Part shown: positions 1,665-25,420 of the stretch, in pieces
Layout of the letters: each line of letters starts with the position of its first letter
How positions within the stretch are numbered: position 1 is the first letter of the stretch
Position numbers and translations under genes: made by a program
Assembly: GCA_016197005.1 (NCBI GenBank)
Contig: JACPWO010000002.1
Span: 146,178-210,177, forward strand
DNA from: Candidatus Anderseniibacteriota bacterium
GTDB lineage: Bacteria > Patescibacteriota > Andersenbacteria > UBA10190
Direction of reading: 5' to 3'
DNA: 64,000 nucleotides
Notes under the pieces: model-generated
What the model saw: only the letters and a program-made list of their open reading frames with translations
The model's database searches: none
Told to the model about the DNA's origin: nothing

Positions 1665-2702
1665 ATGGTTGGCATAGATATCTCAGATCGTTCTATTAAA
1701 GTAGCGGAGGTCTCGGAGGGACAGTCGCAACATATTGTTTCTGTTTGTTGGAGTTCACTGCCACCAGGGGCACTTCAGCGTGGAATTGTACAAAATGCTC
1801 CCCTGATTATTGAGGCAATTACCCAAGCCTTTCAAAAATGTTCACCGGTGCCAGTTAAGAAACGATCAGTTATTGCCTCTATACCTGAGGTACGATCTTT
1901 TGTGCGCGTCCTTGAATTACCCGCTATGGCGGAAGAAGAGCTTGATGAAGCCATAAAGTGGGCAGTACGACAACACATTCCCTTTGATTTGGAGCGTATG
2001 TACATCGATTGGGAACCAGTTGGTGAGCCAGATTTAAGTGGGCGTCGACAGGTGCTAGTGGGAGCGGCTCAACGTGATGTAGTAAATCCACTACTGGAAG
2101 TGCTGGAAGCGGCCGGACTACGGGTCACGGCTTTAGAGTTAGAAGCACAAGCAATTGTTCGCAGCCTTTTGCCGCTTGATCGCAGAGGCGTACAAGGTGT
2201 TTTAATTGTTGATTTAGGAGCCACGACAACGAATATTATTTATGTAAATGCTGGATCACTGCGCTTTTCTACAAGTATTGAGGTGGGGGGAGACACGCTT
2301 ACGTGGCAATTAGCCGGTTCGCTTCACTTGCAGCCAGCGGTAGCGGACGAAAAGAAAGCAGAAATTGGATTGCGCCAACAACAAGATCAGGACGTAGCCA
2401 CGGCGCTTCGTATTGCGACGCTGGAACTTGCGCGAAAGGTAGAAAAGGTTGTCCGGGAAGTAGGAACGCAAGAAGGCTCACAACAAGCAGTGCGAGAAAT
2501 TTTGTTAGCAGGCGGAGCCGCTAATTTGCCTGGCATCATTGAAATCTTTGCCGAAATATTTCCAGGCATTCCAATTCAGATGGGTAACCCCTGGACAAAT
2601 CTGGTGCGAGAAGAAGAAAAGTCATTTCAAATGTCACCACAAGATGCTAGTCACTTTGCCACTGCCTTGGGACTAGCCTTACGACAAGATGTCTCGACAT
2701 GA
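1665..2702 (+). CDS. pilM: type IV pilus assembly protein PilM (actin-like ATPase)
   Basis: Begins MVGIDISDRSIKVAEV (typical PilM start). Actin-fold length 345 aa. C-terminal LLAGGAANLPGI motif. Confidence 0.8.
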   Translation: MVGIDISDRSIKVAEVSEGQSQHIVSVCWSSLPPGALQRGIVQNAPLIIEAITQAFQKCSPVPVKKRSVIASIPEVRSFVRVLELPAMAEEELDEAIKWAVRQHIPFDLERMYIDWEPVGEPDLSGRRQVLVGAAQRDVVNPLLEVLEAAGLRVTALELEAQAIVRSLLPLDRRGVQGVLIVDLGATTTNIIYVNAGSLRFSTSIEVGGDTLTWQLAGSLHLQPAVADEKKAEIGLRQQQDQDVATALRIATLELARKVEKVVREVGTQEGSQQAVREILLAGGAANLPGIIEIFAEIFPGIPIQMGNPWTNLVREEEKSFQMSPQDASHFATALGLALRQDVST

Positions 2703-3430
2703 AAGCAGTAAGTACACTTCGTAAATCTAACGTGAAGGTTCTTATTCTCGGTTGTTTATTCTTGGTGGCCTTAGCCGCGCTGCAACCGTATGTATGGCGG
2801 CTCGTGAGTGCGACTTCTCGCTTAGTAGAAGAGCGTCGGGCGGCGGTTTTACAGCTCAACAATATTCAGACAATTGTTGCTGACTTAGAGCAAGTTGAGC
2901 AATCGGCTGAGGCGACATCAGCGCAGCTTTCTCAAGTACTCATTAGTGAAGATGAAGTAACGCAAGCAGTAGAACGACTAGAACGAGAAGCAGACAAGCG
3001 TGGGTTACAACTGAAGGTAGAAAATATTCAGCGAGTCACGAACCAGGCGAGCGATATTAATTTAACTCAGTTGGTAGTAACCATTACGGCTTTTGGAGCG
3101 GCAGATAAGTTATTTGAATATATTGATGCCGTTGAGCATTTCCCGGAAATTATGTTTACGCGGGATTTTGTCTTGCGCCAAGCACCTGCTCGTTCGAAGG
3201 ATGGCGCAGTAGTCCATGCACTTAACATGAATGCCGTCTTTTATATGAATACTCCAGCAACGGTTGCGACTGAAGGTGATTCTACTCAAAATCGTGGTGC
3301 TCCCACTGATCTTGGTGGCGTTTCTCCGCGTGATGCGCTTTATTGGAGTAGTGTCGGAATTGTCGGCATCGGCGGTGTCTTGCTGCTAGGTGGAATAATC
3401 ATGATGATTAAGCGTAGAACACTTATTTAA
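2699..3430 (+). CDS. PilN/PilO-like pilus assembly membrane protein
   Basis: ATGA overlap with pilM. N-terminal TM, long coiled-coil. C-terminal second TM. Confidence 0.5.
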   Translation: MKAVSTLRKSNVKVLILGCLFLVALAALQPYVWRLVSATSRLVEERRAAVLQLNNIQTIVADLEQVEQSAEATSAQLSQVLISEDEVTQAVERLEREADKRGLQLKVENIQRVTNQASDINLTQLVVTITAFGAADKLFEYIDAVEHFPEIMFTRDFVLRQAPARSKDGAVVHALNMNAVFYMNTPATVATEGDSTQNRGAPTDLGGVSPRDALYWSSVGIVGIGGVLLLGGIIMMIKRRTLI

Positions 3431-3433
3431 TCT

Positions 3434-3808
3434 ATGGCTTCTTTCAAAAAACAAGGATTGCAGCAAGTAGGAGGTCGTGTTGGCCGGCGGGTGGCTAAAT
3501 TTATAGCTGGTCGAACAATGTTTTTGTTATTACTTTTAGCCAGCGTGACGTTAAGTGGAATTTTTGTGTGGCAGCGAGCGGTTAGCTCGCTCCTTGAAGA
3601 ACCTATCATACCAGCTGATCAGGTAGCAGCTACTGTCCAGCTTAGTACGCAAGAACTACAGTCCATCATTGAACGCCGGGCGCAGCGTATTAACTTTACT
3701 CCTCGCTCGTTTGCTCGATTTAACCGCCTGTTTCCAGGTACCGCTGCTTCACCTTCAACTTCACCGATACCCTCTCCTTCCCCAACAGTCAGTCCTGCGG
3801 CAGGATAA
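3434..3808 (+). CDS. pilus-cluster membrane protein with Pro/Thr/Ser-rich C-terminus (hypothetical)
   Basis: Single TM (MFLLLLLASVTLSGIFVW) followed by a PT-rich tail TAASPSTSPIPSPSPTVSPAAG. Confidence 0.4.
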   Translation: MASFKKQGLQQVGGRVGRRVAKFIAGRTMFLLLLLASVTLSGIFVWQRAVSSLLEEPIIPADQVAATVQLSTQELQSIIERRAQRINFTPRSFARFNRLFPGTAASPSTSPIPSPSPTVSPAAG

Positions 3809-3812
3809 AGAT

Positions 3813-4226
3813 ATGTCGCAAACTCGTGTATTGGCTTTTGGCTCCTTTGATATTCTCCATGAGGGGCACAAATATTTTTTGACGGAGGCTCGTAAAACAG
3901 GAGACTACCTCACGGTTGTTGTGTCCCGGGATGGATATATTCGGGACAGTAAGAGGCGAGAGCCTTCAGTGCGTGAGGAGGAACGGGTAGAAGCAGTTAC
4001 AAAGCTGGCTATTGCTGATGAGGTAATGCTTGGAGACGAGGCATCGGGGTATGGGCTGCTCAAAGAGCTTTCGTTTGATGTTCTGGTGGTGGGCTATGAT
4101 CAAAAGCCAAGTGATACTGCTATTCGTCGTCTTTTGGATGATGCCGGCAAAAAGGAAGTGCGGCTGGTACGGCTGCCACCATATAAGCCAGAGACATATA
4201 AATCCTCACTCCTGCGGAAAGCATAG
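3813..4226 (+). CDS. cytidylyltransferase-family nucleotidyltransferase (HxGH motif; FAD synthetase/RibL- or TagD-like)
   Basis: MSQTRVLAFGSFDILHEGHKYFL carries the HxGH nucleotidyltransferase motif. Start trimmed from ORF-track 3669 to ATG 3813 to remove overlap with the upstream gene. Confidence 0.6.
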   Translation: MSQTRVLAFGSFDILHEGHKYFLTEARKTGDYLTVVVSRDGYIRDSKRREPSVREEERVEAVTKLAIADEVMLGDEASGYGLLKELSFDVLVVGYDQKPSDTAIRRLLDDAGKKEVRLVRLPPYKPETYKSSLLRKA

Positions 4227-4244
4227 GCGTGCTAGGATAGGTAC

Positions 4245-4796
4245 ATGCGGGAAATAAATCTCCTTCCCACCCCTCGCCGCACTTTTCTGCGTCGACAGTG
4301 GATATATGACTCACTGCGGCGTTTTGTGTTTAACATAAATGTCGCTCTGATTATTATGACGGCGGTAGCGCTTGCTACGTTGGCCGGGTTACGTAGCGTT
4401 TCTTTCTTTACCTCAGCTGATGCGGAATCTACTATTCCTGAATATCTAGGAAAGTATCAAGCCACTAAACAAGCAATTGAAGAAAAGAATCGGCTCATTG
4501 CTCAGGCTAGCGCGGCCGACCAAGGTCGAATCATTTGGGGGGATTATATAACCGAGCTTTTAAATGTACTACCGCCCGGCACTCTTGTTGAACGTATTAC
4601 GGCTGATGCGGACCAGGAAGAAATAATGGTCACTGGAGATACGGTAAACCGCAGCTCCTTAACGCTACTGGATGCCCGTATTAAAAGTTTATCGTGGGCG
4701 AAAGAAGTACGTGCGCCACTTACAAACTTACTTGATCGCGAAAACCCAGAGTTTTCCTTCACCATTATTCTGAATAGGAACGCAGCAGAGCCGTAA
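4245..4796 (+). CDS. PilN-like fimbrial assembly membrane protein (third copy)
   Basis: MREINLLPTPRR is a PilN-type N-terminus. Single TM follows. Confidence 0.5.
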   Translation: MREINLLPTPRRTFLRRQWIYDSLRRFVFNINVALIIMTAVALATLAGLRSVSFFTSADAESTIPEYLGKYQATKQAIEEKNRLIAQASAADQGRIIWGDYITELLNVLPPGTLVERITADADQEEIMVTGDTVNRSSLTLLDARIKSLSWAKEVRAPLTNLLDRENPEFSFTIILNRNAAEP

Positions 4797-4821
4797 TCTC
4801 CCTTTACACGAGAATCCTTTT

Positions 4822-4859
4822 CTACTACCCTTAAGTCTCTTAGGTAGTAGCTCTTTTTT
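4822..4859 (+). terminator. rho-independent terminator
   Basis: CTACTACC-loop-GGTAGTAG hairpin followed by CTCTTTTTT. Confidence 0.6.
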
Positions 4860-4956
4860 GGGGACGTAGCTCAGTGGGAGAGCGTCAGAGTATTGCTCGT
4901 CTCGCGAGGGGCAATTACAACTCTGAAGGTCGAAGGTTCAAGTCCTTCCGTCTCCA
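4860..4956 (+). tRNA. tRNA-Val-like gene with a roughly 25-nt hairpin insertion in the anticodon arm (anticodon most plausibly UAC; ACA is also possible depending on boundaries)
   Basis: Acceptor GGGGACG/CGTCTCC with discriminator A. D-arm GCTC-AGTGGGA-GAGC. Anticodon stem TCAGA/TCTGA. Variable loop AGGTC. T-arm GAAGG-TTCAAGT-CCTTC. The anticodon loop region is 32 nt instead of 7 and contains the hairpin ATTGC-TCG-tctcg-CGA-GGG-GCAAT immediately 5' of TTACAAC. No CCA encoded. Confidence 0.6.
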
Positions 4957-4960
4957 TTTC

Positions 4961-4983
4961 GCACCCGCTTTGGGTGCTTTTTG
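4961..4983 (+). terminator. rho-independent terminator after the tRNA
   Basis: GCACCC-gcttt-GGGTGC hairpin followed by TTTTTG. Confidence 0.6.
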
Positions 4984-4996
4984 TTATACTCATTCT

Positions 4997-5938
4997 ATGG
5001 CTGAACCGATTATCCTTCCTGCAGGCGCAGCAATTGCCATTATTGCCTTCTTGCTGGCTCTACTACCCGCTGGATTCTTTCTGTGGCTATGGTATTTACG
5101 TCGTCGTGACCGCAGTGTCCCGGCGAGCGTTATGGCAGCTGCTTTCGTGAGCGGTCTTTTGCTTATTCCAGCGGCCTTTTGGCTGGAAGAGGGGGGTCAA
5201 AAGATTTGGGCTTTTCTTAGTCCGGCCACCGTTCATTATTTCAGTACCGATACTCTCGCCTTATTTGAATTGCAGGATGCAATTTTACCTGCCATAGCTG
5301 CATTCCTGATTGTAGCCACCGTTGAAGAAGGGCTACGATATATTGTTTTACGGGTGTGGTTCCGCTTTAGCAAAGGCATTGATCAAATATTTGATGGTCT
5401 TATTGTTGGTGTCGGTGTAGGAGTGGGGTTTGCGACACTGGAAAACACACTTTATTTCCTGGATCTTTTCCGAGGTGGTAGTTTTGATACTCTCGTATTC
5501 GTTTTCTTTCTCCGCTTTGCCATTTCAACCTTAGCTCATGTTAGCTTCTCGGGACTGATGGGAGTTTGGTTGGCTAAGAACTCGCTTGAGTTTCTTTCAG
5601 GCAGACGCTACGCCCTGATGGCCTTTTTTATTCCGTGGTTCTTACACGGTCTCTTCGATTGGCTTCTGACAATTGGTATGAGTATGTATGCCGTACTTGT
5701 TTTACTAGCCCCGCTGCTTGTCTTAATCGGTTGGGCAGGGCAGTCCCACATGTTCGTCGTACATAGGCGTAACGGCAAAACATTAGCGGCCGGAGAGGCA
5801 GTAAGTTCTAGAGAAGTACGGGCCGTGAATAAACTTATGCAAACGCAGGATTCACCATGGAATAAATACGCTCCCTGGCTTTCTCGCACCAAAACATATC
5901 AAAAGATGCTAACATTAATACGTGAAGAAGAACTCTAA
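4997..5938 (+). CDS. PrsW-family intramembrane metalloprotease-like protein
   Basis: Multi-pass membrane protein with EEGLRY, FATLENTLY and HGLFD motifs (PrsW-like EExxK/R, FxxxE, HxxxD pattern). ORF-track start 4874 lies inside the tRNA and was trimmed to ATG 4997. Confidence 0.6.
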   Translation: MAEPIILPAGAAIAIIAFLLALLPAGFFLWLWYLRRRDRSVPASVMAAAFVSGLLLIPAAFWLEEGGQKIWAFLSPATVHYFSTDTLALFELQDAILPAIAAFLIVATVEEGLRYIVLRVWFRFSKGIDQIFDGLIVGVGVGVGFATLENTLYFLDLFRGGSFDTLVFVFFLRFAISTLAHVSFSGLMGVWLAKNSLEFLSGRRYALMAFFIPWFLHGLFDWLLTIGMSMYAVLVLLAPLLVLIGWAGQSHMFVVHRRNGKTLAAGEAVSSREVRAVNKLMQTQDSPWNKYAPWLSRTKTYQKMLTLIREEEL

Positions 5939-15227: not shown

Positions 15228-15626
15228 TGGTGGACACGGCGGGAATTGAACCCGCGTCTGAAACGCGATTACTCAATCTTCTACGCGCGTAGCTGTTCTA
15301 GTGATACTCACCGCAAAGCAGCAGAACAGCAAAGCCTTTGTTGTGAGTGAGATAGTGCAAGTCAACTAATACGTATCTCAGCCGTATCAGTTCAATCCGT
15401 CTAGGTTGACACCGTGATAGTGCGCGACGGATCGCACCAGACGATGGCTATAGGTTTTAAGCTACAGCGAACGCGAACGAAGGGGTGAGTGCAGATGCAA
15501 TCGCCGTCTTCGCGCGGTTAAACAAGTTTGCACGTGACTTGATGAGCTACTGGTATTTACGAGTGTATAACTCTTCACTCGGCGCGCTGATTGTGTAAAA
15601 AACATTCCATCGAAGCCTGTCATGCC
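15228..15626 (-). ncRNA. ssrA: tmRNA (transfer-messenger RNA)
   Basis: The 3' end reads GCGGGTTCAATTCCCGCCGTGTCCACCA, a tRNA-like T-arm plus acceptor and CCA. The 5' end GGGCATGACAGGCTTCGATGG resembles the conserved tmRNA 5' end and can pair with the 3' acceptor strand. An internal in-frame tag reading ends ...PSFAFAVA followed by TAA. Lies adjacent to smpB. Confidence 0.8.
15230..15244. repeat. direct repeat GTGGACACGGCGGGA at the tmRNA 3' terminus (proximal attachment-site-like)
   Basis: Identical to 13877..13891. Confidence 0.7.
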
Positions 15627-15677
15627 CAGTACCTATTTGAATTGCTTCCAATAGTTGTGGGGCAGCCCACACTTCTT

Positions 15678-17067: not shown

Positions 17068-17109
17068 CCCCGCGCTTACCTTCTTGGTGAGTGCGGGTTT
17101 TCTTTTTTT
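17068..17109 (+). terminator. rho-independent terminator
   Basis: CCCGCGC...GTGCGGG hairpin followed by TTTTCTTTTTTT. Confidence 0.55.
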
Positions 17110-18547
17110 ATATCTCTCCTTCCACAACTCTTCTCTGGGTCGGAGGTTCTAGTTTTTCTAACGTAGCTGTCACTGAACCAGCACCAACTTCTTTTTTGGC
17201 ATCAATGTCAGTGGCCTCTACCCACGTTGGGATTGGGTTGCCGCCATGTAATCGGAAGAGAAACATGAGAAAAGTAGTAGCGTAAACTGCTTTCGGAAGA
17301 GAAAAGTTAACTACCACAATTTTTTTGTTACTAATCGCATGTCCGTGTATTTGGGGCGTAATCCACGGTGGAATAGTACGAGAGCGTCTCCGTAAAAATG
17401 GGTATGGGCGTAGGTGTTCCTGGTAATCCTTGGTATTGTCTCGCTCGAGATAATAGTCAAACAAACGATCTGCCTCATCACTTGTCTGCGGAAGAGGAAG
17501 GGGATCGGGAGAAGTAACTTGCCCAGCCATGGCTTGAGATAGAAATTGGTTAACGAGAAAACTACCGTAGCTATAAAACCAGAATCGTACTTGATCCTGA
17601 ATAGCTAGAAGAGCCTGAGTGGGACGATCGCCAGCTATGAGTGCATCAAGCAGTAGACGTTCGTGCCGAAACTTATATGGCAAGATATCAAATGTTTTTT
17701 TCATCTTCTGCCAATCACCATATGATTCTTTCGCTTTAACTCGCATAGATTTGTAAATCGGAACATCAAATGGACTAGTGCCAACCAAAAACGCCCGAAT
17801 GGCTTCTTCTGGTTTTCCTTGCGACAACAGCAAACCAAGATGCGGGTTAATGAGTCTATGTCCAAATCGCTGAGTGCCAAAGAAATTTGGAAATCCATCT
17901 TTTCCCAGCTTTTGTAGCGACTCCGAGAATGCTTGCTCATCAATATCTTGTTCTGTTCTGACGGTGATGGTAAATCGGTTACCAACCAGTTGCCCGGGAG
18001 ATATGGCTCCTTTGCCAATTTGTTTGGGTTTAATAAAGAAGTGGCTTTTGGGAAGTGCATTGAGTTTTTCAACAGTAGTACCGCGAATACTTACTCGCTG
18101 GCTGGTGAGGGCTCTCCCATCCTTCATCCCGGCATAGCCGACTTTCTGTGGTGAGATACCTACTTGAGAAGAAAGCTGGTTAATGGCTTCAAATGTACCA
18201 ATGCCAATTTTTACTAAGTCAGCATAAATAGTTTCTCCTTCAGATATCTCTTGAGTAAAAGGTTCTGTCGATGGGTCTATCGTAGTTTGGTCACCTTCTC
18301 CTTTTAATTCCTCAACAATAAAGTCTTGGGGATAGTAGCGAAGGTAGCCGGTTAACGAAGGATTAACCCCAGTAATACCAACATATTGCAAAGCGGTAGC
18401 TGGATCATACTGCGAGGAACGCACCATTTGATCTGGGTATTTTTTTGCCAGTTTTTCGTAGTTCTCCTGCTCCAATTTGAATAGCTCGGACTCACTTACT
18501 TGTTCCTTTTTGTCCATAGGTAATTCCAGTGTATCCTTTATAATCAC
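17108..18547 (-). CDS. truD: tRNA pseudouridine synthase TruD/Pus7-like
   Basis: FPNFFGTQRFG is the TruD hallmark motif. 479 aa, longer than typical bacterial TruD. Confidence 0.7.
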   Translation of the reverse strand: MIIKDTLELPMDKKEQVSESELFKLEQENYEKLAKKYPDQMVRSSQYDPATALQYVGITGVNPSLTGYLRYYPQDFIVEELKGEGDQTTIDPSTEPFTQEISEGETIYADLVKIGIGTFEAINQLSSQVGISPQKVGYAGMKDGRALTSQRVSIRGTTVEKLNALPKSHFFIKPKQIGKGAISPGQLVGNRFTITVRTEQDIDEQAFSESLQKLGKDGFPNFFGTQRFGHRLINPHLGLLLSQGKPEEAIRAFLVGTSPFDVPIYKSMRVKAKESYGDWQKMKKTFDILPYKFRHERLLLDALIAGDRPTQALLAIQDQVRFWFYSYGSFLVNQFLSQAMAGQVTSPDPLPLPQTSDEADRLFDYYLERDNTKDYQEHLRPYPFLRRRSRTIPPWITPQIHGHAISNKKIVVVNFSLPKAVYATTFLMFLFRLHGGNPIPTWVEATDIDAKKEVGAGSVTATLEKLEPPTQRRVVEGEI

Positions 18548-24175: not shown

Positions 24176-25420
24176 ATATAGAAATCAGTAGTCGTTCGTT
24201 AGAAAAGTCGGAACAGTAGAAGTGCGGCTCGGGCGAGAGAGGAGGTGGCATCAGGGTTTTTTACGAGCACTGCCTAAGGGCAATGGCTTGCTAAAATAGA
24301 ATATGCACCTCTTCTCGACAGCAATGAGTTAGTTCGAGATCCCGTCTGGGATGCTCGCCATCACGCACAAGTATCTGTGGAGGAGGTTACCATCCCCTCT
24401 CGATCGAGCCGCACTTTCATCATTAATGCAGTGAACACTATGTCCACTTCAATTGTGGGTATTGATGTCGCATCTCGCAAGCTTGATATGTGCATTGAGC
24501 AAGACGGGAAGCAGCAATATGCCACCATCGAAAATACGGCGCAGGCAATTGCGCAGTACGCAAAGGAGCACAAGCTCTCGCGCAAGAACTGTCTCGTTGG
24601 CCTGGAGGCAACGAACGATTACCACTTCGTGGTAACCCGGTTCTTTCTCAAGAAAGGGATTCCGGTTAGGATCATGAATCCCATTGTGACTAAGCGATAC
24701 ACCCGCACGACAGTGCGGGGGAAAAAGACAGACAAGACAGATGCACAGAACATTGCTCGTCTGGCCGCGGAAGGAGAGGGAGAATTGGCTAGCTTAAGCA
24801 ATGTAGACAACCGAGAGAAGGAACTTTTGAGACTCTCCCGATCACTTGTGAAGCTGAAAGTTCAGCTGACGTTGCGCCTGCAGAGCCTGCGCCGCAAGCA
24901 ACTCAAGAACACTGGCCGCATCGAACGAAAGCTGGAAAAGATTGAGGGCATGCTTTTTGATGTAGCAGAAGAGTTAGTAGGTGAAGTTACTGAAGATCGC
25001 TCCCACGACGAAGAGCTCATCGACTCCATTCCCGGATTCTCCACTAAGCTCTCCGCAATTGTTCATCATGAATTAGGCGATGTTACGAGATTCAAGAACG
25101 CGAGAAGCCTCGCTTCTTTTGCCGGACTTGATCCGAGGGTGGTACAGAGTGGCGGCAGGCTGCATACCAGCGGACGCCTCATGAAGCGAGGTTCCCCGTA
25201 CTTACGGTCAGCATTGTTCTTGGCTGCAAACGTGGCCTACCATTACGACGAAGAGCTTGGTGAATACTATGCAAAAAAGAAAGCCGAGGGAAGATCGCAC
25301 AAGGAAGTCCTATGCATCATTTCAAGGAAACTCCTGTACCGTATCTGGGCAGTGCTTAAAGAACAGCGAGAGTATGTAGTGAAACAAAATACAAACTAAA
25401 TGCTCTTGCGGAAGACATAG
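24176..25420 (+). mobile_element. IS110-family insertion sequence (boundaries approximate)
   Basis: Single DEDD-type transposase gene preceded by a roughly 265-nt non-coding left end and followed by a very short right end. This matches IS110-group architecture, which has no terminal inverted repeats. Confidence 0.6.
24440..25399 (+). CDS. IS110-family transposase (DEDD RuvC-like N-domain plus Ser-containing C-domain)
   Basis: IVGIDVASRKLD, LVGLEATNDYH and KTDKTDAQNIARLAA blocks (DEDD). C-terminal IPGFSTKLSAIVHHELGDVTRFKNARSLASFAGLDPRVVQSGG block. Confidence 0.85.
   Translation: MSTSIVGIDVASRKLDMCIEQDGKQQYATIENTAQAIAQYAKEHKLSRKNCLVGLEATNDYHFVVTRFFLKKGIPVRIMNPIVTKRYTRTTVRGKKTDKTDAQNIARLAAEGEGELASLSNVDNREKELLRLSRSLVKLKVQLTLRLQSLRRKQLKNTGRIERKLEKIEGMLFDVAEELVGEVTEDRSHDEELIDSIPGFSTKLSAIVHHELGDVTRFKNARSLASFAGLDPRVVQSGGRLHTSGRLMKRGSPYLRSALFLAANVAYHYDEELGEYYAKKKAEGRSHKEVLCIISRKLLYRIWAVLKEQREYVVKQNTN

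Follow-up and report, generated by a model that had tools for sequence, protein, structure and literature searches.

The pre-tRNAs of archaea and eukaryotes carry bulge-helix-bulge (BHB) introns, which are short (tens of nucleotides), lie in the anticodon loop and pair with loop nucleotides to form a longer arm with a 3-4-nt bulge on its 3′ strand. Bacterial tRNA genes are interrupted by group I introns of 184-894 nt with a catalytic core, including the introns at position 35/36 of Patescibacteria (Nakagawa et al., 2026, PMC13011429), and 'enigmatic' short introns have been described in the tRNAs of Lak megaphages (Devoto et al., 2019, PMC6784885). Here, we describe a tRNA-like gene at positions 4860-4956 of a 64-kb stretch (hereafter the window) of contig JACPWO010000002.1, which belongs to a metagenome-assembled genome (MAG) of Candidatus Andersenbacteria, a lineage of the Patescibacteria within the Candidate Phyla Radiation (CPR). 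The gene has a complete tRNA body, but 32 nt instead of 7 separate the two halves of its anticodon stem, and no excision scheme turns it into a canonical tRNA. On present evidence it is a real, unusual and isolated oddity of a single lineage, and its splicing is unsupported. The explanation we favor, with moderate confidence, is a young, lineage-specific tRNA-derived gene whose decoding has been disabled by a palindromic insertion, that is, a pseudo-tRNA that is still undecayed.

A reading of this DNA made earlier from the letters alone (hereafter the sequence-only reading) had proposed a tRNA gene with an insertion in the anticodon arm, and the letters are as it described. The Rfam tRNA model RF00005 covers the gene from end to end with 59.1 bits (E 3e-10, gathering score 29), and its alignment has the 32 nt that had been counted between the anticodon-stem halves. 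Each of the canonical parts listed earlier is present, namely the acceptor, D arm, anticodon stem, variable loop, T arm and discriminator A, as is the gene's own terminator, a hairpin at 4961-4977 followed by a T run (Table 1). No damage is seen in the acceptor stem, the D and T arms or the nucleotides of the tertiary contacts, the last comprising U8, A14, G18G19, G53T54T55C56 and A58 of the cloverleaf. What is missing is a canonical 7-nt anticodon loop on a 5-bp stem, and the gene goes uncalled when ARAGORN is run in its default bacterial mode. Across 4797-4996, the sequence is identical at 200/200 positions in an independent Logan assembly (SRR12113416, L259). Since this contig was assembled from another sequencing run, the insertion is not an assembly artifact.

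The insertion is an ordered structure. The predicted fold of the whole RNA is the cloverleaf, at -40.8 kcal/mol (z -4.0 vs dinucleotide shuffles), and the anticodon arm alone reaches -18.9 kcal/mol, compared with -10.4 +/- 2.8 in 2,000 shuffles of the loop. Because the arm is more stable than 99.35% of these shuffles (0.65% reach its energy), the insert can be regarded as a real palindrome and not as random filler; the hairpin at 4892-4914 on its own gives z values of about -2.6 to -2.9 against shuffles. In the predicted fold, the anticodon stem is lengthened first by two pairs (G:C and U:A), followed outward by a 4-nt UACA bulge on the 3′ strand (4916-4919), a 7-bp helix (AUUGCUC/GGGCAAU) and a small cap. 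Thus, the self-contained hairpin of the sequence-only reading is a true palindrome, but it is predicted also to pair with loop nucleotides, and the resulting arm, which had gone unnoticed, would be a single continuous irregular helix of about 16 bp. A K-turn is ruled out by the lack of tandem G.A pairs in the sequence. The hairpin has no second copy in the 64-kb window, either with up to 3 mismatches (<=3) or by blastn-short, and as a single-copy sequence there it is ruled out for the window as an element of the repetitive extragenic palindrome (REP) or miniature inverted-repeat transposable element (MITE) kind.

Removal of the extra nucleotides does not restore a normal tRNA. As can be read from the sequence, all eight 25-nt excisions that keep a 5-bp anticodon stem yield only ACA, AUA or AUU loops, and every one of them places A at position 34. 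To our knowledge, A34 is used in bacteria only in tRNA-Arg(ACG). In its intron mode (-i), ARAGORN reports tRNA-Val(UAC) with a 23-nt intron at 33/34, but the call shifts the stem to CAGAG/CUCUG; excision leaves the 9-nt stretch GUUUACAAC, which amounts to a 6-bp anticodon stem (U27:A43 plus five pairs) and a 7-nt loop. It had been expected that removal would leave UAC or ACA, depending on the boundary. ACA does follow from a 25-nt removal, whereas UAC requires both the 23-nt excision and the 6-bp stem. A BHB motif had also been suggested as a check, and an exhaustive search found no convincing one. The lone candidate combines the bulges GUA and GGG with a 4-bp helix (UUGC/GCAA) and a 4-bp inner helix, but the outer helix is limited to 2 bp, in competition with the anticodon stem, and cuts at both bulges would leave the 14-nt loop GUGGCAAUUACAAC instead of a 7-nt anticodon loop.

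The resemblance to BHB introns stops at size, site, the pairing of loop with insert, and the bulge on the 3′ strand. The canonical 37/38 reading of this gene gives the anticodon AUU, and the best valine reading puts the insert at 33/34. We know of no EndA endonuclease from bacteria. The splicing-endonuclease and ligase check that had been proposed for the genome was made within the window, where none of about 60 open reading frames (ORFs) encodes RtcB, Rnl, polynucleotide kinase or EndA/splicing endonuclease. With the group I tRNA introns of Patescibacteria, the gene shares the phylum, the location in the anticodon loop and a 5′ exon that would end in U. Unlike them, its insert measures 23-25 nt and does not end in G. 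Even when all of the 23-32 nt are considered, there is no catalytic core (P3-P9), and no other Rfam family, introns included, matches the region even at E <= 10, which rules out a group I intron.

The amino-acid identity of the gene is in conflict with its only plausible anticodon. The acceptor carries G1:C72, G2:C71, G3:U70, G4:C69 and A73, which together with G20 form the complete alanine identity set as judged from sequence. Alanyl-tRNA synthetase (AlaRS) reads this set without contacting the anticodon and charges anticodon-less substrates, for example transfer-messenger RNA (tmRNA) and minihelices. Recognition of alanine identity independently of the anticodon was reportedly established in 1988, by Hou and Schimmel and by McClain and Foss. 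Among the 434 tRNAs found across all fetched loci, G3:U70 occurs in 22/29 tRNA-Ala, in 0/19 tRNA-Val and in 16 of 349 non-Ala tRNAs. In the same comparison, the body without its anticodon arm is nearest to tRNA-Ala(GGC/UGC) and then to tRNA-Val(UAC). Its first 24 nt are the same as those of a phage tRNA-Val(UAC) (L257, 1514-1586; IMG/VR UViG_3300012940_000023), which also has the same D loop and T loop, but carries G3:C70 and the anticodon loop CTTACAA. The phage gene is a normal tRNA within an array of 11 tRNA genes. Because the nearest relatives are Ala and then Val, and the first 24 nt are shared with the phage tRNA-Val, the body can be assigned to the Ala/Val type. The earlier label tRNA-Val finds support in the UUACAA loop motif, but is doubtful because the acceptor holds the alanine pair G3:U70 with A73, a set that had been overlooked; likewise, the D arm is Val-like as stated, but equally Ala-like. 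Anticodon and acceptor therefore disagree, with UAC specifying valine and the acceptor alanine, so that a spliced product would be expected to place alanine at valine codons.

Comparison with relatives suggests that the gene is confined to one lineage. Synteny around PrsW was compared in five contigs (L003-L007). In relatives whose PrsW is 54-61% identical, a nadD-like gene directly precedes prsW with no tRNA between them, and a relative with 72% identity has another upstream neighbor and no tRNA at the site. On the other side, the 183-aa ORF immediately upstream of the tRNA-like gene has a single homolog in 5.8 billion proteins (67% identity, L255), which lies in the same upstream gene order and is not followed by a tRNA. 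L255 matches only the upstream side and L003-L007 only the downstream side, without the immediate upstream ORF. No tRNA occurs at the site in either set, and the tRNA-like gene therefore sits at a junction unique to its species.

Scans of large collections point the same way; they demand exact matches to degenerate patterns, and the source genome is in neither of the two large collections. An Ala-type pattern (D arm, 10-40 extra nt ahead of the T loop, and U70-C71-C72-A73) returned 114 loci from 185,579 species-representative genomes, none of which resembles this gene. About half are archaeal intron-containing tRNA-Ala, and the others are unrelated long tRNA-like genes of bacteria or clear cases of partial tandem duplication. 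A Val-type pattern, which required GGGAGAGC and UUACAA with an insertion 5′ of UUACAA, gave 13 chance matches in JGI metagenomes and 0 matches in IMG/VR. In 8/13 of the metagenome matches, GGGAGAGC occurs by chance upstream of a complete normal tRNA-Val, and the other five contain no insertion-bearing tRNA-Val. Exact scans of IMG/VR with the 3′ half and the stem found nothing, and the 5′ 24-mer matched only the normal phage tRNA-Val(UAC). BLAST against 50,697 phage records returned only 29-nt T-arm matches to tRNA-Pro. There are thus no orthologs at the syntenic site or in the genome, metagenome and viral scans from which the covariation of a conserved RNA family could be read, and within the collections and relatives searched the gene is a singleton of this lineage.

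The explanation that best fits these observations begins with an Ala/Val-type tRNA gene of class I, which may have been duplicated or acquired and then gained a palindrome of about 23-25 nt at the 5′ side of its anticodon loop. The insertion would be recent and may have accompanied a rearrangement. With the insert paired both to itself and to nucleotides of the loop, the arm is predicted to form one continuous helix with UACA bulged, and a 7-nt loop would no longer be presented. If transcribed, the RNA would be expected to undergo cleavage by RNase P, CCA addition and charging by AlaRS. On its sequence features it could thus probably be processed and alanylated, but it would be unable to read codons on the ribosome. 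A crippled or non-decoding copy is most likely, instead of a new bacterial intron, because the gene is found in a single lineage and removal of the insert yields no normal tRNA.

Several points weigh against such a copy. There is no decay, as the gene keeps all 21/21 canonical stem pairs, every conserved tertiary position and a strong terminator of its own, whereas a long-dead pseudogene would be expected to show mismatches, as do the decayed tRNA-Ala-like copies of an Obscuribacteraceae MAG (L154). In addition, the clean hairpin is coaxial with the anticodon stem and leaves UUACAA exact, which could reflect selection. Among described systems, the gene is best filed with the non-canonical and disrupted tRNA genes of prokaryotes as an unusual variant. 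It shares with them an isolated position, one disabling anomaly, a variable genomic junction and the failure of default tRNA finders to detect it, but most of those genes are fragments, attachment (att)-site remnants or duplications, whereas this one is full-length and undecayed with a clean hairpin (PMC9897764; PMC4390854). Of the two alternatives offered by the sequence-only reading, a tRNA-derived or pseudo-tRNA locus therefore fits better than an intron, which leaves its overall interpretation partly supported.

A genuine intron-containing tRNA would lose the 23-nt hairpin through an endonuclease and an RNA ligase of the RtcB or Rnl type, or through unknown chemistry, and would emerge with the loop UUUACAA (anticodon UAC) on a 6-bp stem. 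The intron call of ARAGORN, the identity of UUACAA with positions 33-38 of tRNA-Val(UAC), the likeness of the first 24 nt and of both loops to the phage tRNA-Val(UAC), the undecayed body and the BHB-like arrangement are all consistent with it, and Patescibacteria are unusually rich in introns (PMC13011429). The introns of Lak megaphages (PMC6784885) offer a further parallel, as short tRNA insertions of a phage or bacterial system for which no splicing mechanism is known, but they are conserved over several phage genomes, whereas the present gene is a chromosomal singleton. We nevertheless consider an intron unlikely. Its product would combine the 6-bp stem with G3:U70 and would be charged with alanine while reading valine codons, the BHB-like cuts would not generate the UAC loop, neither a splicing endonuclease nor an RNA ligase is encoded in the window, the three large collections scanned hold no second example, and the other tRNAs seen on the contig lack insertions. 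The novel short bacterial intron proposed earlier is thus without support, given that no excision is canonical, the BHB candidate is poor, the gene is a singleton and splicing genes are absent from the window.

Selection for a non-decoding role is somewhat more probable than splicing, and we still hold it to be improbable. The RNA could be an alanine-accepting mimic, for example an alanine donor for aminoacyl transfer to the cell envelope, or it could occupy a tRNA-binding protein or an anticodon nuclease as a decoy or sponge, with the extended arm keeping it off the ribosome. The complete alanine identity set, the intact acceptor, T and D modules, a stable and ordered arm, and the general ability of AlaRS to charge substrates that lack an anticodon would all suit such a role. 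The tRNA-like domain of tmRNA and other AlaRS-charged mimics likewise combine G3:U70 and A73 with an ordinary T arm and have a long helix where the anticodon arm would be, and alanylation independent of the anticodon is predicted for both. However, this RNA is only 97 nt long, has a full D arm and lacks an mRNA-like domain, a tag ORF and pseudoknots, and the genome has a separate tmRNA. Other phyla do have conserved, covarying families of tRNA-like genes in which an Ala-type acceptor goes with a replaced anticodon arm, but the present gene shows no sequence similarity to them. There is also no ortholog or paralog in the relatives and collections searched, hence no sign of selection, no partner gene of the Fem or MprF type among the window ORFs and no promoter detected in 4500-5300. 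A third possibility, which we regard as very unlikely, is that the gene is a chimeric scar left at a rearrangement junction by recombination between the anticodon loops of two closely related tRNA genes, or by imprecise excision of an element that had integrated there, with the halves fused and filler left behind. It lies exactly at the genome-unique junction where the matches to L255 and to L003-L007 end, the 5′ side of its loop holds UUGC (an Ala-like anticodon) and the 3′ side the Val-like UUACAA, and the lone wobble pair G3:U70 could be a trace of fusion. Against this, the acceptor and anticodon stems show perfect pairing from one side of the presumed junction to the other, the filler forms a clean palindrome, and no direct repeat of a tRNA half, integrase or att-like duplicate was found in the window.

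Splicing of the hairpin would make it the first short tRNA intron in Bacteria to depend on proteins, one belonging to neither group I nor group II, and would reopen the question of when the BHB/ligase pathway arose. If the gene were instead a selected alanine-accepting mimic, it would join the small set of non-ribosomal users of aminoacyl-tRNA. Either would be new tRNA biology in the CPR, but it is unlikely that the gene represents such a case, whether a short intervening sequence with a valine anticodon and alanine identity that is removed by a pathway other than group I or II, or an unspliced, selected, anticodon-masked alanine-accepting mimic. The gene also serves as a warning for annotation, since ARAGORN misses it by default and names it tRNA-Val in intron mode, and the ORF list runs a 354-aa frame through it. 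This GTG-started frame (4874-5938, + strand) crosses the tRNA-like gene, while the true start of prsW is the ATG at 4997 (313 aa), which matches the NCBI record and all homologs. Finally, the gene draws attention to the long tRNA-like genes that occur, at low frequency and uncharacterized, in the genomes of bacteria and phages.

Table 1. Positions of the tRNA-like gene, its parts and the flanking hairpins in the window.
Feature	Position	Strand	Remarks
Upstream hairpin, CTACTACC..GGTAGTAG then CTC-TTTTTT	4822..4859	+	8 + 4 bp; -12.5 kcal/mol, z -2.6
Whole tRNA-like gene, GGGGACG-TA-GCTC-AGTGGGA-GAGC-G-TCAGA-(32 nt)-TCTGA-AGGTC-GAAGG-TTCAAGT-CCTTC-CGTCTCC-A	4860..4956	+	97 nt, CCA not encoded; RF00005 model positions 1-71; minimum free energy fold is the cloverleaf
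Acceptor stem, 5′ strand, GGGGACG	4860..4866	+	Pairs with 4949-4955; G3 at 4862 opposite U70 at 4953
D arm, GCTC-AGTGGGA-GAGC	4869..4883	+	7-nt D loop with G18 G19 G20; Rfam alignment
Anticodon stem, 5′ strand, TCAGA	4885..4889	+	Pairs with 4922-4926, 5 bp; Rfam alignment
Nucleotides separating the anticodon-stem halves, GTATTGCTCGTCTCGCGAGGGGCAATTACAAC	4890..4921	+	32 nt replacing 7 in the Rfam alignment
Palindromic insert, ATTGCTCGTCTCGCGAGGGGCAA	4892..4914	+	23 nt; 'intron' of ARAGORN -i at 33/34
TTACAA	4915..4920	+	Same as positions 33-38 of the tRNA-Val(UAC) loop
Anticodon stem, 3′ strand, TCTGA	4922..4926	+	Rfam alignment
Variable loop AGGTC and T arm GAAGG-TTCAAGT-CCTTC	4927..4948	+	Rfam alignment
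Acceptor stem, 3′ strand, CGTCTCC (U70 at 4953), and discriminator A73	4949..4956	+	Rfam alignment, fold
Downstream intrinsic terminator, GCACCC-GCTTT-GGGTGC + TTTTT	4961..4982	+	z -3.9

The signals around the gene bear on its expression. The upstream hairpin with its run of six U abuts the 5′ end of the tRNA-like gene and probably serves to terminate the 183-aa ORF, and transcription of the gene would depend on read-through past it. No sigma-70-like promoter was found in 4500-5300, which is weak evidence because CPR promoters may differ. Because the gene lies directly behind a terminator-like hairpin and lacks a recognizable promoter, it is probably weakly expressed. The downstream terminator ends 15 nt ahead of the prsW start. 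A second independent Logan contig from the same species (SRR12113388, L002, 2988 nt) breaks 12 nt past the stop codon of the 183-aa ORF, just ahead of the hairpin and the tRNA-like gene; strain differences, or difficulties in assembling this locus, could account for the break. The 183-aa ORF starts with MREINLLP, and we take it to be PilN-like. Upstream of the tRNA-like gene there are two PilM-type genes (window 1665-4796 and L258 8979-10004), and small ORFs without Pfam matches follow each of them.

The bacterial context claimed in the sequence-only reading stands, as the window holds ordinary bacterial housekeeping genes, among them PilM-type pilus genes, a nadD-like gene and those for PrsW, L20/L35/IF-3, Obg, SmpB beside tmRNA, TruD, ArgRS, LeuRS, HisRS, Tgt, RecO, TopA, DprA, Mfd, Pth, an LCP protein and YbeY. 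The tmRNA next to smpB is a standard one (15228-15627; Rfam 121.9 bits). For other tRNAs, the contig was examined over the window plus 10 kb on each side (~84 kb of a genome of about 1 Mb), which revealed tRNA-Leu(CAA) inside the window and tRNA-Pro(GGG) and tRNA-Pro(CGG) in the 10-kb extension past the window end (L260). All have normal loops, so among the tRNAs in this ~84 kb an insertion in the anticodon arm is not a habit of the genome. The tRNA-Leu(CAA), like the tRNA-like gene, does not encode CCA.

Comparable aberrant or duplicated tRNA genes occur at low frequency in other MAGs (L133, L158, L163 and L154). The nearest architectural analog is found in the Obscuribacteraceae MAG, where three decayed tRNA-Ala-like copies lie about 1 kb apart (2096-2187, 3121-3211 and 4180-4270), with mismatches in the acceptor and T stems. 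The second and third have a hairpin insert of ~19 nt 5′ of a UUUGCGC loop, with a sixth stem pair possible, and the first has the same hairpin core with a different 3′ flank. A Saccharibacteria (CPR) MAG (L230) contains two adjacent aberrant tRNA-like genes (2694-2800 and 2833-2920), one of which has G3:U70 and a branched anticodon domain of 50 nt, while the other has an internal tandem duplication in which GCAGAGCGCAAG occurs twice.

A conserved tRNA-like family of 103-126 nt was also observed in Armatimonadota, Chloroflexota and some proteobacterial MAGs (L132, 529-636 and 674-799; L138, 5314-5436 and 5459-5567; further loci in L171, L176, L182, L184, L198, L217, L224 and L229). Its members have an Ala-type acceptor, with G3:U70 in 10/12, and normal D and T arms, and the anticodon arm is swapped for a conserved domain (CCAUCGCC..UUGCC-hairpin-GGCCG..GAUGGUUAUC) with covarying pairs. 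A tandem second copy is present in L132 and L138, both of the loci checked with their flanks. Rfam 15 labels members of the family merely 'tRNA'.

A broad pattern for class I tRNAs with 10-40 extra nt gave at least 120 matches in IMG/VR, among which intron calls by ARAGORN produced apparent analogs with a hairpin on the 5′ side of the loop. Under a stricter parse, most of those with an intact anticodon stem among the matches listed proved to be tRNA-Tyr(GUA) with ordinary 37/38 introns, and they were discarded as analogs. Such tRNA-Tyr(GUA) genes, with introns of 12-38 nt at 37/38 and a loop that starts YUGUAG, occur on many viral contigs of IMG/VR (L015, L025, L027, L034, L039, L043, L053, L060, L078, L113, L123 and others). 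Several of these contigs are labeled as giant-virus MAGs, and ARAGORN mislabels some of the genes as other isotypes with '5′ introns'.

Two further genes of the window stand apart from the tRNA-like gene. An IS110-family transposase (DEDD_Tnp_IS110 and Transposase_20; 24377-25399, + strand) lies between an IleRS-like gene and recO and is the sole mobile-element gene seen in the window. The other encodes a TruD-family tRNA pseudouridine synthase of 479 aa (17108-18547, - strand) and adjoins the ArgRS gene; outside the Proteobacteria, few bacteria have TruD.

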